This document shows, piece by piece, positions 6,524-12,651 of a stretch of 32,636 nucleotides of DNA. Where the stretch lies: the IMG/VR virus record IMGVR_UViG_3300020044_000781, positions 1-32,636 of that record. The stretch is one strand, 5' to 3'. The DNA is from a virus (Duplodnaviria; Caudoviricetes). The notes under the pieces were generated by a model that had not been told where the DNA came from, ran no database searches, and worked only from the letters and a program-made list of their open reading frames with translations. The translations under genes were made by a program, and so were the position numbers. How positions within the stretch are numbered: the first letter of the stretch is position 1; every line of letters starts with the position of its first letter.

Positions 6524-7144
6524 ATGTTAAATCTTAATTTGGGTGGTTCGGGTGGCAATATCAATTTCATTCGTTTTATGCCGAGCGTCAATGCTTGGCA
6601 AAACAAGGATAAAGTTGAGTTCACTATGAAGAAAGTTGTCTTTGACATTGAGAATGTCCAGACGGGTTGGTTGCTCTTAGAGACTGGGACAAGAGATTGG
6701 CAGCCAGATGTAGCATTGGGAAAAAAGGGTGCGCAGCCGACGCCAGAGCATAAACGTGGGTTCATCGTGAAGTTCTACAATCCTGAATTAGACGTTGTGG
6801 AATGGTCAGCCAATGGGACTGGGCCGAACATTGGACTCAATGAGCTGTATCAAATGTGTTCAGCAGAGCATGGTGACAATGCTGGTCTATTGCCTCTCAT
6901 TGAATATAAGGGCGCCAGAGCTGAGAAGATCGGAAAGGGAACGACTAGAATACCTCAGTTTAAAATTGTCGAATGGGTTAAAAGACCTAAAGCAATGAAC
7001 GCTGACGGGTCAAGTTCTACTGTCAGCGCCAAACCAGTGGTAATACAAGAAGACGACTTCGATCCGTTTCCCGCGCCTAAAGCAGCAGCTGTCTCTCCAA
7101 CGCCTAAGAAAGCGCCAGTTGACGACGCAGAGATGTTTGAGTAA
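6524..7144 (+). CDS. Putative single-stranded DNA-binding/annealing protein
   Basis: Lies between nuclease and primase-helicase; beta-rich core, flexible linker and acidic-aromatic tail (DDAEMFE); followed by a terminator. Confidence 0.55.
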   Translation: MLNLNLGGSGGNINFIRFMPSVNAWQNKDKVEFTMKKVVFDIENVQTGWLLLETGTRDWQPDVALGKKGAQPTPEHKRGFIVKFYNPELDVVEWSANGTGPNIGLNELYQMCSAEHGDNAGLLPLIEYKGARAEKIGKGTTRIPQFKIVEWVKRPKAMNADGSSSTVSAKPVVIQEDDFDPFPAPKAAAVSPTPKKAPVDDAEMFE

Positions 7145-7159: not shown

Positions 7160-7191
7160 CCAGAGGCTGAGAGATGCCTCTGGTTTTTTTT
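7160..7191 (+). terminator. Rho-independent terminator
   Basis: CCAGAGGC-8 nt-GCCTCTGG followed by T8. Confidence 0.85.
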
Positions 7192-7212
7192 CCCCTAAAT
7201 TTTAGGATTGAG

Positions 7213-9288
7213 ATGAACGCTCAACAAATAGCGGAACAACTAGGGAACGCCAAGAAGGAGCCAAAGGGCTTTTTGTGCAGTTGCCCAGTTCCGAGCCATG
7301 GACGAGGCAATGGAGACAAGAATCCATCTCTGTCTGTGTGCGATACAGATTCAGACGCTAAGGTGCTATTCAAATGCTTTGGCGGGTGCAGTCAAGACAG
7401 TGTGTTTAATGCGATCAAGGATATGGGTTTGCTCCCAGAGTTACCGAAGATCGAGGATATATTCAAAGACGTGAAACCATTAGCATTGGTGAGGAATGAC
7501 GCTCCCACTACACCAACGGCGCCAGTTGTGGAGGCTGAGTGGTATTACGTGGATGAGATGGGCGAGAACTTGTTCGTTAAGCGTCGTTTGCGCGTCAACA
7601 CACCAAAGGGAAAAGATTACAGACTCTACAAGATAGAGAACGGCGCAGTGCAGCATACATTGGGGAACGCGCGGATAGTCCCGTACAACTTACCCGCGGT
7701 TCAGGACGCGATAGAGCGTGGACGCGCAATCTACATTGTCGAGGGTGAGAAGTGCGCAGAGAGTGTCCGCGGTCTGGGTTTGGTGAGTACGACGAGTCAT
7801 CGAGGCGCCTCAGGATGGCCGAAGGAGATCAACCAGTTCTTTGTGGGCGCCAATGTGATTGTGTTACCAGACAACGACAAGGCTGGGCAAGGTTACGCGA
7901 AGTGCGTTGTCGATGAATTGTTTGGCGTTGTGAAGTCGATCAGAGTTGTTCAGCTGCCTGGCCTTGAGGAACGCGAAGATGTATATGACTGGATTCTCAA
8001 GTATGGCCACTCAAAGGAGGAGTTGATCGAGTTGGCCAAGGACGCCAAGAAGATCACCGATCTAGGGGAATATTTGGGGAGTTCTGCGGAAAATTCGTTA
8101 AATGTTGATGATCTTGGACTTGATTCGTCGGTTAAGACAGATGAATCTAATTCAACACTTGCGCCAAAGAGATACAAACTCGAATCATGGGACGAGATCA
8201 AGGACGAGCCAGTTGAGTGGTTGATCGATGGCGTTTTACCGCGTCGGAGTTTTGCTGCACTCTTTGGTGCGCCAGGTTCGTACAAGAGTTTTGTCGCTCT
8301 GGACATTGCGGAGGCAGTGGCGACGGGTCGAGACTGGATGGGTAGACAAGTCCATCAGGACAGTGCTTTGGCGCCATCAGTTCTCTACATTGCCGGTGAG
8401 GGTCACGGAGGAATAGGAGCCAGGATCAAGGCGTGTAAAAAGCACAACAACACCAGAGATGGTGCGCAAATCTATGTGATCAGGTCGCAGATCAACATGA
8501 GGTCAAGTGTGGCCGATCTGGAGGCTTTGATTGGTAGTGTTGATGAGCTGGTCGCTGAACATAGAATTAAGCTCGAATTGATCATTGTGGATACGTTGGC
8601 GCGTTCAATGGGCGGTAACGCCAACGAGAACAGTTCTGAAGATATGGGCGCCATCATTAACAATCTAGGCGCAGTACAGGCACGATATGACAGCAGTTTG
8701 CTGGTTGTTCACCACTCTGGGAAGGACGCTGCAAAGGGTATGCGTGGCCATAGTTCGCTATTAGGTGCAGTGGATACAGAGCTTGAAATTACCAAAATAC
8801 TGGGTAAAGATCAGCGCCAAGGCACAATATTGATCAGGAAACAGAAAGATGGTGAGGACGGTTTGACGCTAGGATTTAAGTGTGTCGAGGTCAATTTAGG
8901 CGACAATTTAGACCTTTTAGAGACTTCGAGTCTGGCCATCCAGATGGACGATTCAGTGAATTCGATGACCGAGGAGAGCGCCAAGGGAAGAAAAAAGCCC
9001 AACAGATTGGGCAAAGGGCCGAACAATGAGCTGGGTTTTGAGGTGCTTTGTGTACTACTAAAGAACCACAAAAGTCGTGAAACAATTAACGGAAAAACTG
9101 TATATTGTGTCGATTTGAGCGCTTGGAAAAGGGATTTTGAGAAGCGCAAAGGCGGTTTTAGTGCGCCAAAATTACTCGATCAGGCGTTTGATAGGATATG
9201 TACGGCGCTACAAAATGCGCAAATGATTGAGATTTGGGGTGATAAAGTGTGGTCAAAATTGGTGGATTTAGACTCCAATGAGTTCTGA
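7213..9288 (+). CDS. Primase-helicase (Zn finger + TOPRIM + RepA/AAA_25-type helicase)
   Basis: CPVPSH...CFGGC; VEGEK and PDND; Walker A GAPGSYKS; Walker B IIVDT; HHSGK..RGHSSL. ATG 7213 (SD AGGA) is preferred because 7174 lies inside the terminator. Confidence 0.92.
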   Translation: MNAQQIAEQLGNAKKEPKGFLCSCPVPSHGRGNGDKNPSLSVCDTDSDAKVLFKCFGGCSQDSVFNAIKDMGLLPELPKIEDIFKDVKPLALVRNDAPTTPTAPVVEAEWYYVDEMGENLFVKRRLRVNTPKGKDYRLYKIENGAVQHTLGNARIVPYNLPAVQDAIERGRAIYIVEGEKCAESVRGLGLVSTTSHRGASGWPKEINQFFVGANVIVLPDNDKAGQGYAKCVVDELFGVVKSIRVVQLPGLEEREDVYDWILKYGHSKEELIELAKDAKKITDLGEYLGSSAENSLNVDDLGLDSSVKTDESNSTLAPKRYKLESWDEIKDEPVEWLIDGVLPRRSFAALFGAPGSYKSFVALDIAEAVATGRDWMGRQVHQDSALAPSVLYIAGEGHGGIGARIKACKKHNNTRDGAQIYVIRSQINMRSSVADLEALIGSVDELVAEHRIKLELIIVDTLARSMGGNANENSSEDMGAIINNLGAVQARYDSSLLVVHHSGKDAAKGMRGHSSLLGAVDTELEITKILGKDQRQGTILIRKQKDGEDGLTLGFKCVEVNLGDNLDLLETSSLAIQMDDSVNSMTEESAKGRKKPNRLGKGPNNELGFEVLCVLLKNHKSRETINGKTVYCVDLSAWKRDFEKRKGGFSAPKLLDQAFDRICTALQNAQMIEIWGDKVWSKLVDLDSNEF

Positions 9289-9307
9289 GTTTTTTGTGTT
9301 TAAGATG

Positions 9308-9457
9308 TCTTCGTATGGAAATTGTCTTCAAATGAAATCTTCAAATGAAATATCAAAAAAGGACAAAAACTTGTCTTCAGATGGAATCGTATATATATAT
9401 ACGATCCATGTGAAGATGAATGTTGAGGATTTTGAGGACGATTTGTCTTCACATGAC
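9308..9457. repeat. Iteron-like array (six TCTTCANATGRA-like units) around an AT palindrome; putative phage replication origin
   Basis: Units at 9308, 9325, 9338, 9374, 9446 (+) and 9404-9416 (-); perfect 20-bp palindrome ATCGTATATATATATACGAT at 9386-9405. Confidence 0.75.
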
Positions 9458-9517
9458 TTTTTTTAGTGTTAGGTGGTTGGTGCTTTTTTGTACCGCTTTT
9501 TTTAAAGGTTTTACGTT

Positions 9518-10165
9518 ATGACGATTTCAGTTAAAGGTTTGAGGAAATCTAAGTTCGAGGTTGAGCGTCCGAATTTTCCGATGACCGAGTTTGAGAGGTT
9601 TTGTAGTTCGATCTTGGTGGAGCTGACCAGTCGGATTTATGAGCATGAAAATCGTTGGGGTGTTTCACGACTTATAACCATGGTGGATGTAGGGTTTCGG
9701 GAGAAGTTCTGGATGCAGCAAGAACGGGTTTGGATTGCGCAGAATTCTGGAGATCAGGAGAAGTTGGAGAAATCGGTCAAGGGCATGATCAAGGCTTATG
9801 AGCTGATGGAGCAATGGGCGATTGATAATCAGATTGAACCTATGCCAAGTTTTAAGGTTTTGGAGCACGTCAAAGACAATGGGTTTCTCATGGCGGTTTG
9901 TGAGACTGAGAACGTTAAGGTGGATTATTTGCGGTTTAAGGGTTCCAAGCCTGGTCTAACGGTTTACACATTGCAAGAGATCGAGGCCATGATCGAGGGT
10001 TATCTGATCTTGAAAGAGCTTGAGTCTTATAAGGCCGAGTATCCAGATGCGACGGTGAAGGTCGTTGAACGTGCGCCCAGTATTTTTGATGACATGGAGG
10101 ACGATCTGGAGCCACTGAGTTCGGCAGCTGTTATGCCAAAGTTCAAGATTCCAAGGGGTAAGTGA
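9518..10165 (+). CDS. Hypothetical protein (215 aa)
   Basis: Long ORF with SD AAGG; segment ENRWGVSRL; no recognised family. Confidence 0.8.
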   Translation: MTISVKGLRKSKFEVERPNFPMTEFERFCSSILVELTSRIYEHENRWGVSRLITMVDVGFREKFWMQQERVWIAQNSGDQEKLEKSVKGMIKAYELMEQWAIDNQIEPMPSFKVLEHVKDNGFLMAVCETENVKVDYLRFKGSKPGLTVYTLQEIEAMIEGYLILKELESYKAEYPDATVKVVERAPSIFDDMEDDLEPLSSAAVMPKFKIPRGK

Positions 10166-10407
10166 TGCCAGGCAAGCCAATGATGAACACCAAGAACTTC
10201 TATCGAATTCTTAGCGATGCTGATCGAGCAGTGTTATTGGCAGCTGGAGGAGGAAACATTACCACTGGATTCCACGAAGTTCTGAGGGTTTATGCGGAAA
10301 TGCACAACTTGGGGTTTAAACGCGATACAAGCGTTTATGACTTTGTCTATGGTGAAGATATGACCGATGACTTAGAAACGATCCTAGACCGATCTGGTGA
10401 ACCCTAG
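10162..10407 (+). CDS. Hypothetical protein (possibly small DNA-binding)
   Basis: GTGA coupling with the upstream gene; LLAAGGGNITTG segment. Confidence 0.65.
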   Translation: MMPGKPMMNTKNFYRILSDADRAVLLAAGGGNITTGFHEVLRVYAEMHNLGFKRDTSVYDFVYGEDMTDDLETILDRSGEP

Positions 10408-10704
10408 AGGTATTTGCTTGGTGCAAATGGATCAATCCTTGAAACATCACAAAAACTAACATGGTTAATATTTGTTTTACAGATGAAACGATTGTTTCAA
10501 GGGTGAAACACGATAGTCAAGTCCTATCGAAAAGCACCATCCGATACATATATTCTATCGGATTTAGATTTGCTCTTGGTCGCGCCCACTTCCCCAGCTC
10601 CCAAAAGTTATCCACAGATTTCCTGAGAATCCGTCCACAATTTCTGTGTATAAGTCCAAAATGTACGATTCGCCTGTGAATATCTTGTTGATAAACACAA
10701 ATTA

Positions 10705-10732
10705 ACTTAACATAATGGACATTGTATCAAAT
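10705..10732 (-). other. dif-like XerC/XerD recombination site
   Basis: Minus strand ATTTGATACAA-TGTCCA-TTATGTTAAGT; the XerD arm is 10/11 identical to E. coli TTATGTTAAAT; 11-6-11 layout; the XerC arm is divergent. Confidence 0.75.
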
Positions 10733-10753
10733 GTAAATAAACAACACATTCGC

Positions 10754-10766
10754 TAAGTCGTTGATT
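10754..10766 (-). promoter_or_regulatory. IHF binding site
   Basis: Plus strand TAAGTCGTTGATT, reverse complement AATCAACGACTTA, is an exact match to WATCAANNNNTTR. Confidence 0.7.
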
Positions 10767-10949
10767 TATAAGGATATTTCTGTGAGCGTTTACTAACATG
10801 GCTGGAATGTGGAAAACCTGTGGATAACTTCGCATAGGGGGGAGGGGGTCGGCTTGGCTTGAGGTTATTTCAGGTACATCCTCCGCACATAAAAAGCAAA
10901 ATCGGCGATAATCCCCCAACACTTCCACTTTTTAGAAAGAAAAAAGGCA

Positions 10950-11399
10950 ATGGAAAACGAAAAAGAAGAACTGTTCACAGCACGACGCGCACGCGGTCGA
11001 CCAAAAGGCGCCGTGAAGATGACCATGGAGCGCTATGCTGCGAACCCTCCAACGCTCCTCCCCAAAACCGACCACGCGCGCCTCAAAGAGCTGAAGGACA
11101 TACTCATCAAGTCTGGCGGTAAACACGTCGTGGAGAAGGTGATCCAAATCGCCTTGAACGATAATCACCCAGGCCAAATGGCTGCACTCAAAATGTGTAT
11201 AGATAGAACGCTCCCCACATCGATGTTTGAAAAAGACAAGAATCAGCGCAGTGCCGTGACCATCAACATCACTGGCATTGGAGACAACAGTGCGACCCAA
11301 ATCATCGAGAACGAGCTGACCGTCAGCACCAAAACCTTGGCGTCACCAAAAGACAGCAAAGACGACGACATCGAGGACATAGACTTAAATAATGGCTGA
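10950..11399 (+). CDS. terS: Terminase small subunit (putative)
   Basis: N-terminal RGRPKG, helical core, directly upstream of and overlapping terL. Confidence 0.7.
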   Translation: MENEKEELFTARRARGRPKGAVKMTMERYAANPPTLLPKTDHARLKELKDILIKSGGKHVVEKVIQIALNDNHPGQMAALKMCIDRTLPTSMFEKDKNQRSAVTINITGIGDNSATQIIENELTVSTKTLASPKDSKDDDIEDIDLNNG

Positions 11400-12651
11400 T
11401 CTGAACTTTTCCCTCCTCCCGTGGCAACAAACCGTCTTCACGGACAAGACCAGATTCAAAGTTGTCGCAGCTGGTCGCCGTTGCGGTAAGAGTAGACTGG
11501 CAGCCACAACTCTCATCATCGAGGCGCTGAAATGCCCAGCTGGTTCAGCCGTCATGTATGTCGCGCCTACCAATGGACAGGCTCGGCAGATCATTTGGGA
11601 CGTCTTGATGGACATCGGCCGAGAGGTCATTGCGTCGTCTCACGTCAACCAGATGGACATCACCATGATCAATGGCGCAAAGATATATGTGCGTGGCGCC
11701 GACCGTCCTGACACTTTGCGCGGAGTCTCTTTGACTTACGCTGTTTTGGACGAGGTCGCCGACATCAAGCCCGAAGCCTGGGAGCAAGTCATTCGCGCCT
11801 CTCTGTCAGACAAAAAGGGTCGCGCCATCTTTATTGGCACTCCCAAAGGTCGCAATTGGTTCTATGATTTGTACAACTTGGGGCAGAATGAGACGGACGA
11901 CGACTGGAAGTCGTGGCACTTCACGACGAAAGACAACCCCATGATCGACGAGAAAGAGATTGAGTCGGCCAAGAAAACCTTGTCGAGCTTTGCGTTCAAG
12001 CAAGAATACTTGGCGTCGTTTGATAACGCGGGGAGCAATCTGTTCAAAGAAGAATGGATCAAGTACGGCGAAGAACCCGAACACGGGTCTTATTTCATCG
12101 CCGTTGACTTGGCGGGTTTCGAGGAAGTGGCTAAACAAGCAGCCAACGCGAAAAAGAGGTTAGACGAGTCGGCCATCACGATTGCCAAAGTCACCGACGA
12201 CGGTAAATGGTTCATCACTGAGATCGAGCATGGAAGATGGGATATTAGAGAGACGGCGTCGAAGATACTCACGAAGATCAGAAAGTACCGTCCTATTTCA
12301 GTCGGCATTGAGCGTGGCGCCTTAAAGAACGCTGTTTTACCGTATTTATCGGATTTGATGCGCAAGTCGAGCATCTATTGCCACATTGAGGATTTGACCC
12401 ACGGGAACCGCAAAAAGGCTGATCGAATCATCTGGGCATTGCAAGGACGCTTTGAACATGGGAGAATCATCCTTAATTCAAAGCACGACTGGACAGAGTT
12501 CATTGATCAGTTGTTGATGTTTCCAGCCAATGGCGTCCACGATGACTTGATCGACAGCGCGTCCTATATTGACCAGTTGGCCGTCACCTCTTACTTTATG
12601 GAAGGAGAGGACGAAGACTGGGAACCCGTAGATATTATTAGTGGAGTTTAG
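11392..12651 (+). CDS. terL: Terminase large subunit
   Basis: PWQ, Walker A AGRRCGKS, LRG, Walker B VLDEVA, coupling motif GTP, nuclease AVDLA and HDDLID. Confidence 0.96.
   Translation: MADLNFSLLPWQQTVFTDKTRFKVVAAGRRCGKSRLAATTLIIEALKCPAGSAVMYVAPTNGQARQIIWDVLMDIGREVIASSHVNQMDITMINGAKIYVRGADRPDTLRGVSLTYAVLDEVADIKPEAWEQVIRASLSDKKGRAIFIGTPKGRNWFYDLYNLGQNETDDDWKSWHFTTKDNPMIDEKEIESAKKTLSSFAFKQEYLASFDNAGSNLFKEEWIKYGEEPEHGSYFIAVDLAGFEEVAKQAANAKKRLDESAITIAKVTDDGKWFITEIEHGRWDIRETASKILTKIRKYRPISVGIERGALKNAVLPYLSDLMRKSSIYCHIEDLTHGNRKKADRIIWALQGRFEHGRIILNSKHDWTEFIDQLLMFPANGVHDDLIDSASYIDQLAVTSYFMEGEDEDWEPVDIISGV

Follow-up and report, generated by a model that had tools for sequence, protein, structure and literature searches.

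A host-type dif site phased with DnaA and IHF motifs beside the packaging genes of tailed phages

Why would a tailed phage carry, next to its terminase genes, a compact array of motifs for the initiation and resolution factors of its host's chromosome? The question is raised by a block in the virus record analysed here (the window, 32,636 nucleotides), a complete record assembled as a circle whose ends overlap by about 121 nt. Its gene set includes lysis genes, a Holliday-junction resolvase, an exonuclease, TerL, an SU10-like portal, and capsid and tail proteins. No cultured phage matches the window at the DNA level, the closest TerL and portal matches from cultured phages are below 60% identity, and an Rfam search gave no match. 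An earlier note on this DNA had described the phage as integrase-less, and indeed no tyrosine integrase was found in the window. We propose, at a rough probability of 0.45, that the block would be a self-specific Xer site, gated by DnaA and IHF, that serves host-dependent replication.

Layout of the block and its chromosomal counterpart

The block was scanned with consensus motifs for DnaA, IHF, KOPS, Fur and LexA. Every motif claimed in the earlier note was recovered in its place (Table 1). The DnaA box at 10732, which that note had listed as near-consensus, is present as a one-mismatch match, but it overlaps the XerC arm and has no counterpart in relatives, and is therefore probably due to chance. 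Four of the five strict DnaA boxes in the genome lie within 220 nt, an arrangement that none of 200,000 random placements reproduced. The exact IHF consensus has seven matches in the genome; taken by itself the one in the block would be weak, and only its conserved distance to dif, described below, speaks for it. Upstream of the block, at 10472–10510, are an imperfect 18-nt direct repeat and a 17-nt inverted repeat that could be a site for a phage protein. Contig depth is raised over about 10530–10870 in runs X1, X2, X3 and X7 (assembled contigs only). Loose ends and summed strain depths explain this rise as strains collapsing on a conserved stretch. In X4, the depth of a contig spanning 9987–11420 is no greater than that of neighbouring contigs.

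Table 1. Features of the block and the neighbouring genes in the window.
Feature	Position	Strand	Remarks
Primase-helicase (Zn-TOPRIM primase / RepA-type (AAA_25) helicase), 704 aa	7174..9288	+	Marks the replication module found together with the DnaA-dif block
Small conserved gene, family unknown	10162..10407	+	Directly upstream of block; common to relatives of all three replication types
DnaA box, perfect	10608..10616	+	Offset +88; outermost inverted box, XerD side; family peak +88 to +90
DnaA-like box, degenerate, 3 mismatches	10631..10639	+	Offset +65; family peak +65/66
DnaA box, perfect	10645..10653	-	Offset +51 from XerD arm; box there in 25/53 divergent sites
DnaA box, one mismatch	10675..10683	-	Offset +21, one helical turn past +10 box; 6/53 divergent sites
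DnaA box, one mismatch	10686..10694	-	Begins 10 nt after XerD arm; best-conserved accessory position
Sigma-70-like -35/-10, 10/12 match	10688..10716	+	Overlaps +10 box and XerD arm
dif-like site, 11-6-11 layout	10705..10732	-	
XerD arm	10705..10715	-	Same as Comamonadaceae chromosomal arm
Central spacer TGTCCA, 6 bp	10716..10721	-	XerD-proximal half differs from host TGTATA
XerC arm	10722..10732	-	One base off host variant in 6/120 GTDB matches listed
IHF consensus, exact	10754..10766	-	First base of WATCAA 34 nt from XerC arm; orientation opposite to most relatives
DnaA boxes, two perfect, tandem (10808, 10819)	10808..10827	-	XerC side beyond IHF; relatives vary more in this position
G-run (10837-10849) with downstream AT core, C-rich tract, A-run	10837..10900	+	Holds KOPS-like GGGGAGGG at 10839
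Probable terS (terminase small subunit)	10950..11399	+	By position; no family match
TerL (terminase large subunit)	11392..12651	+	

The dif-like site has the layout of a dif-type site, with arms that match host XerC and XerD sites. It differs at 4 of 28 positions from the Rhodoferax dif given in the table of PMC2731167, and at 3 of 28 from a host variant present in 6 of the 120 GTDB matches listed. These matches were obtained with a dif pattern derived from the phage sites, which hit at least 120 GTDB stretches; by title, nearly all those listed are Rhodoferax, Limnohabitans, Polaromonas or other Burkholderiales. The XerD arm is single-copy in four of five host genomes, the fifth having a second copy on a phage-like contig, and on three complete chromosomes it lies at 0.50, 0.52 and 0.55 of the chromosome length from dnaA. 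The phage site is thus a copy of a Comamonadaceae-type dif, whose host counterpart is single-copy and opposite the origin; the dif-like 28-mer had been correctly recognised. Because its arms match this chromosomal dif, the host would most likely be a Comamonadaceae bacterium. For a phage subgroup with a different XerD arm, a matching chromosomal-type site was found in 11 of 301 family genomes. The arms appear to predict hosts, as phage variants follow Burkholderiales dif variants, and the match would assign to Comamonadaceae a large group of uncultured phages, estimated for one pattern at about 380 IMG/VR stretches. Homologues of the phage primase occur in 1 of 127 and 13 of 159 host genomes, at 35–40% identity. 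One bacterial genome (G271) has two dif-like sites with different non-canonical spacers on two contigs (L516:8829-8851 and L517:9442-9464), with no genes of the window's phage family nearby.

Spacing to the Xer arms and divergence of the spacer

The dif pattern matched at least 119 stretches in IMG/VR. In 160 loci fetched by TerS or TerL (915 kb), all 50 exact matches to the XerD arm fall within 450 nt before the conserved G-run. The block occurs with three terminase lineages: in that of the window the order is block, G-run, terS, terL, and in two further lineages the block is flanked by an Sf6-type terS and by a terL whose product has no BLAST match to TerL of the window's lineage. Four GenBank phages with a lineage-C-like TerL had no DnaA-dif block in the parts examined; they have G-rich motifs, clear in three of the four.

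We counted offsets from the end of the XerD arm and allowed DnaA-like boxes up to one mismatch. Among 124 distinct phage sites, boxes are found at +10 in 104, at +51 in 92 and, inverted, at +66 in 93, and no such peaks appear at 114 bacterial dif sites. When 219 phage sites were thinned to 53 divergent ones (<75% identity), boxes remained at +10 in 32, at +51 in 25, at +66 in 25 and at +88 to +90 in 35; 110 bacterial sites show no peak at +10, +51 or +66. On the XerC side, 20 of the 53 divergent sites have an IHF motif whose WATCAA starts 34–36 nt (11 sites) or 44–46 nt (9 sites) from the arm; at bacterial dif sites, IHF motifs at these two distances were found in 0 and 2 of 110. The two distance classes are one helical turn apart and the motif occurs in either orientation. 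In the window it is flipped yet stands at the same 34 nt, which presumably fits if the centre of the bend, as we place it from the IHF-H' structure, is what is conserved. A compact form of the block with two boxes also exists. The fixed distances to both arms, together with whole-turn variation of the IHF motif, suggest that the protein bound at dif is probably part of one structure with DnaA and IHF.

The check for conserved order and spacing proposed in the earlier note, run on phage pre-terminase regions, thus found both conserved across divergent phages. Its comparison with accessory factors also holds at the level of spacing, in that the DnaA and IHF motifs keep the phase to both Xer arms that accessory sites should have; accessory sites at fixed spacing to the core are a feature of cer- and psi-type sites, here made of DnaA and IHF motifs and not of ArgR or ArcA motifs. 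We consider the cis-module to be real and conserved, and it appears to be undescribed. The literature searched, outside which most subscription papers lie, yielded no paper on dif sites of tailed phages phased with DnaA and IHF, in line with the earlier note's statement that it knew of no described system with this layout; PMC5964084, in its available part, mentions neither DnaA nor Xer. Side by side with this family, unrelated-looking phage groups (L409, L419, L404, L445, L450; L414, L447, L443) have an E. coli-type XerD arm followed 9–11 nt later by one to three DnaA boxes. The first five of these loci belong to records G404-G406; in records of 136–162 kb, this arm occurs four to five times, co-oriented.

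Relative to terL, the block is found in both orientations (72 XerD-left, 55 XerC-left). This bears on the idea that it is a late promoter kept silent by DnaA and XerD while phage copies are too few to titrate them away. The sigma-70-like match would suit such a switch, as the +10 box contains its -35 and the XerD arm its -10, but with both orientations in use the promoter would often fire away from the late genes, and four such matches were found where 1.9 are expected. We regard a late promoter as highly improbable.

The 6-bp spacer differs from that of the host. TGTATA was found at 0 of 219 phage sites versus 92 of 114 bacterial sites, and the XerD-proximal triplet ATA at 0 of 219 versus 106 of 114. 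Homology to host dif is therefore absent on the XerD side, and on the XerC side TGT is kept at 49 of 219 sites (21 of the 53 divergent ones), the window included. The retained TGT raises the question whether the block is an attP of the IMEX type, integrating at host dif by XerC-first exchange as VGJphi or gokushoviruses do; the earlier note had suggested integration at dif. In the available parts of the papers, VGJphi integrates despite XerD-side mismatches (PMC5357621) and gokushovirus dif motifs integrate with variable spacers (PMC7062461), and the phage, like these elements, encodes no integrase of its own. On the other hand, 170 of 219 sites lack the XerC-side homology, and an integrated state with hybrid sites at host dif was not found: no TGTCCA or TGTTCA hybrid was among the 120 bacterial matches listed. 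Only 1 of these 120 loci matched any of 14 window proteins (compared over flanks of 1.5 kb for 80 loci and 0.3 kb for 40), and that locus is a 3.9-kb phage-like contig. None of 401 family genomes, many of them MAGs, which can miss prophages, gave a TerL match above 35% identity. The search for prophage junctions that the earlier note had recommended thus gave, among the matches listed and the genomes covered, neither an integrated relative nor a hybrid site. Since the spacer is never that of the host and no prophage was found, integration is unlikely, and we hold an IMEX-type attP to be improbable. Secondary-chromosome dif sites are likewise divergent in the spacer, which, in the available part of PMC2533119, is proposed to prevent fusions. 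Mosaic junctions between phages are not in excess at dif (8 pairs, compared with 12 and 165 in control windows).

The earlier note had also included a KOPS-like motif in the module. KOPS are polarised toward the XerD side of dif, and arrival of FtsK on that side is permissive. Among 127 sites, the geometry is permissive in 28, non-permissive in 30 and both in 12, and the other 57 have no KOPS. Given this inconsistency, and because the motif is part of a family-wide G-run present whatever the cassette, we dropped a KOPS role and judge the 8-mer incidental. The KOPS matches at 94 and 32609 are a single site, because the window ends overlap.

Replication modules and the exchangeable slot

The presence of the block follows the genes upstream. 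A quick TerL tree of 76 rows, from which five atypical loci were omitted, requires 15 changes of the label dif+DnaA, at least 8 of them forced by strong branches. The cassette tracks the upstream early region and not terS/terL: pairs with different cassettes share up to 93% identity downstream and no alignable DNA upstream. Between the window (7174–12651) and records G409-G413, three different replication modules are exchanged upstream of terminase genes that are nearly identical, and the point of exchange is at or close to the G-run. Five complete block-less relatives encode an O-like or primosomal initiator with an Erf or Sak annealase (three) or a PolA-type polymerase with another primase (two), and have no DnaA cluster or dif elsewhere in the genome.

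We analysed the linkage in 54 loci with at least 2.6 kb of upstream sequence, typed by marker genes, after seven atypical loci had been excluded. DnaA boxes and a full dif are present in 21 of 21 loci with the window-type primase. Boxes occur in 0 of 19 and 0 of 5 loci with the two other modules and in 1 of 9 without an assigned type, and a full dif in only 1 of the 24 loci of other types; relatives with Erf or Sak annealases are without it. Erf of P22 acts in circularisation. No annealase was recognised in the window, in which the proteins at 6524 and 9518 are without assignment; these two conserved proteins of the replication module (6524–7144 and 9518–10165) have no family, structure or atlas match. 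When loci spanning to terL were fetched by the primase, independently of the motifs, at least three boxes within 300 nt were found in 41 of 45 (control, 1 of 42) and the XerD arm in 40 of 45, the other five showing degenerate arms on inspection. Hitch-hiking could account for some of the link to the primase, given that block and upstream early region move together, but the small gene beside the cassette is common to all replication types, which argues against hitch-hiking alone. The block is absent from both of two more distant phages checked that have RepA-type primase-helicases, indicating that this class of enzyme does not need it in general.

The window-type module consists of a primase-helicase with neither a polymerase nor an O-like initiator, and DnaA boxes occur only with this module. 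The array could then be mainly a host-licensed origin for the phage primase-helicase, with dif as an ordinary neighbour working independently. A DnaA-box cluster, an IHF site and AT-rich DNA coincide at the block, as in oriC, the 60 nt over dif being among the most AT-rich 0.23% of the genome, and an inverted box pair 6 bp apart is also found in an oriC-like cluster of a host (L463). However, no DnaA-trio-like repeats were seen next to the boxes when the window was inspected by eye, GC skew shows no inversion at the block, and an origin would leave the independent fixed distances to both Xer arms unexplained. The enzyme may also recognise an origin of its own: its C-terminal domain has a confident predicted fold (pLDDT 77), for which a fold search gave no match at E<=0.001 and the best, weak structural matches are winged-helix domains of MCM, ORC and CRP, so that it is predicted to be winged-helix-like. 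We therefore consider an origin with an independent dif unlikely. The same domain leaves uncertain the earlier note's statement that the phage has no initiator. The rest of that statement stood, as neither a polymerase nor ParA/B or another partition protein was found among 43 ORFs scanned, 20 of them scanned additionally. Its suggestion that only host proteins are used goes too far, since the phage encodes the primase-helicase. The stable episome that it also suggested would have to persist without partition genes of its own, none having been found.

Downstream, the slot that holds the block is bounded by the G-run, which stands before terS in 122 of 155 loci; the remaining 33 are mostly truncated by contig ends or have insertions or variants. 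The G-run often forms an inverted repeat with a C-run 25–30 nt downstream, and an A within it is kept in 78 of 80 cases, the search pattern having demanded A or T there. Judged by position and analogy only, it is probably a packaging (pac/terminase) signal. What the earlier reading missed is that in relatives the same slot, adjoining this probable signal, holds other host-type motifs. In 87 pre-G-run regions we counted Fur-like motifs in 22, LexA-like motifs in 16 and a 12-bp palindrome in 28, compared with 0–1, 0–1 and 0–4 in flanking and shuffled control windows, a contrast inflated by picking the motifs after inspecting the same regions. These cassettes fill the slot in the two other replication types. 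In relatives with O-like initiators (L004, L006, L007, L011, L012, L096-L152), the 300 nt before the G-run contain arrays of all three, a possible decoy or host-state sensing cassette; the palindrome is not clearly enriched in five host genomes. Short GC-rich tandem repeats with units of 6–13 nt occupy the slot in L018, L020, L055, L058, L067 and L080, one of which encodes a polymerase. In L028, L031 and L032, the G-run and terS are separated by an inserted ORF that looks HNH-like by eye. In L005/L126, terS is immediately preceded by a portal-like sequence in reverse, which probably reflects chimeric assembly. Single or tandem copies of the XerD arm that lack a XerC arm lie before the G-run in either orientation (L103, L112, L115, L129, L151; L048, L059, L079, L107); such arms occur in the absence of DnaA boxes.

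That the slot gathers host-type binding motifs in general is the main support for the leading rival explanation, possible if doubtful: the block binds DnaA, IHF and XerD/C beside the packaging signal without being used catalytically. Such a site could titrate the host's factors for initiation and resolution, act on the packaging region by shielding or bending it, serve to unload SMC, or hold the DNA as a tether, and its non-host spacer would merely avoid accidental fusion. The lone XerD arms, found in 4 of 19, 1 of 5 and 2 of 9 loci of other or no assigned types, point to binding without recombination. There are also precedents, in the available parts of the sources: XerD acts as a non-catalytic SMC unloader at dif-like XDS sites (PMC11840125, citing Karaboja 2021), DnaA-box clusters lie in the terminal repeat of T5-like phages (10.1101/866236), and phi29 carries host parS and Spo0A sites (PMC2731898). 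Binding alone, however, would not account for the retention of a XerC arm and of the 6-bp spacing in every locus of one replication type (21 of 21), or for the lack of DnaA boxes in all loci of the other two (24 of 24), and a decoy has no need for a fixed phase to both Xer arms. That both arms and the 6-bp spacing are kept in one replication type, with a full dif in only 1 of 24 loci elsewhere, favours catalysis.

A proposed mechanism and its known parallels

Based on these observations, we suggest how an accessory-controlled Xer site could operate. XerC and XerD would bind the dif-type core cooperatively and DnaA the array on the XerD side, while IHF would bend the XerC side and fold the distal DnaA boxes back over dif, a folding modelled on the way PepA/ArgR-type accessory factors organise plasmid Xer sites. 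The resulting DnaA-IHF-XerCD complex would recombine copies of the phage DNA with one another, in time with host-dependent replication, and the likely outcome would be to close or resolve circles. Candidate reactions are circularisation of a terminally redundant genome, resolution of dimers, and the making of multimers for packaging. With its altered spacer, the site would be barred from the usual exchange with the host chromosome yet still be able to recombine self by self, as at secondary-chromosome dif. The same complex may help to open the AT-rich stretch for the phage primase-helicase. As judged from sequence, the block would thus likely let phages without a polymerase run their own DNA circle on host machinery without fusion to the host chromosome.

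A bolder version is more doubtful: these abundant tailed phages of freshwater might be host-operated mini-chromosomes, in which DnaA and IHF, through a 230-bp element, serve host XerCD as accessory factors and the state of the host's DnaA gates the start of replication together with circularisation or multimer control. If true, this would be DnaA-controlled site-specific recombination, of a kind on which no paper was found. DnaA is known as an initiator and transcription factor, and accessory factors of Xer recombination are known from a few plasmids. If divergent phages do maintain a Xer site phased with DnaA and IHF, initiation control and site-specific recombination would be connected, and tailed phages would be seen to apply XerCD to their own DNA instead of for integration. 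The element is small and acts only in cis, which makes it open to direct tests with reporters and purified proteins.

The closest likeness is to cer of ColE1 and psi of pSC101, which, in the available part of PMC5357621, also combine a host XerC/XerD core, a non-chromosomal spacer and host DNA-shaping sites at fixed positions. Their accessory factors are PepA with ArgR or ArcA in place of DnaA and IHF, whereas the block, known from its sequence alone, has accessory motifs on both sides of the core and is found in tailed phages beside packaging genes. PepA has no simple motif. Host-type arms around a divergent centre are shared with secondary-chromosome dif sites such as dif2 of Vibrio cholerae and the dif of Burkholderia chromosome 2, whose divergence is proposed to prevent fusion with the main chromosome, in the parts available of PMC2533119 and PMC2731167. 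Secondary-chromosome dif sites are driven by FtsK and KOPS and lack conserved accessory motifs; the block has phased DnaA and IHF motifs and an inconsistent KOPS geometry. IMEX (CTXphi, VGJphi, TLCphi, GGI and the enterogokushoviruses) are likewise integrase-less mobile elements with a dif-like site, but they are found integrated at dif, and the TLC, GGI and gokushovirus sites diverge in the XerD arm, the best-kept part of the phage block.

Sites for host chromosome proteins in the non-coding DNA of lytic phages are also known from the injection-stop DnaA boxes of T5 (10.1101/866236) and from parS and Spo0A of phi29 (PMC2731898). As far as the available parts of these sources go, the regions concerned have no dif, unlike the block. 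In 30.6 kb of a T5-like genome, DnaA clusters have no XerD arm within one mismatch beside them, and in the end regions of phiEco32 no XerD arm lies beside DnaA boxes. Phage P1 has loxP near pac, a site able to close or resolve the phage circle, with the recombinase, Cre, encoded by the phage. The block resembles loxP as a tyrosine-recombinase site near the start of packaging, with the difference that its recombinase would be host XerCD. Without claiming membership of IMEX, oriC or cer/psi for it, we suggest that the module would work most like an accessory-controlled Xer site.
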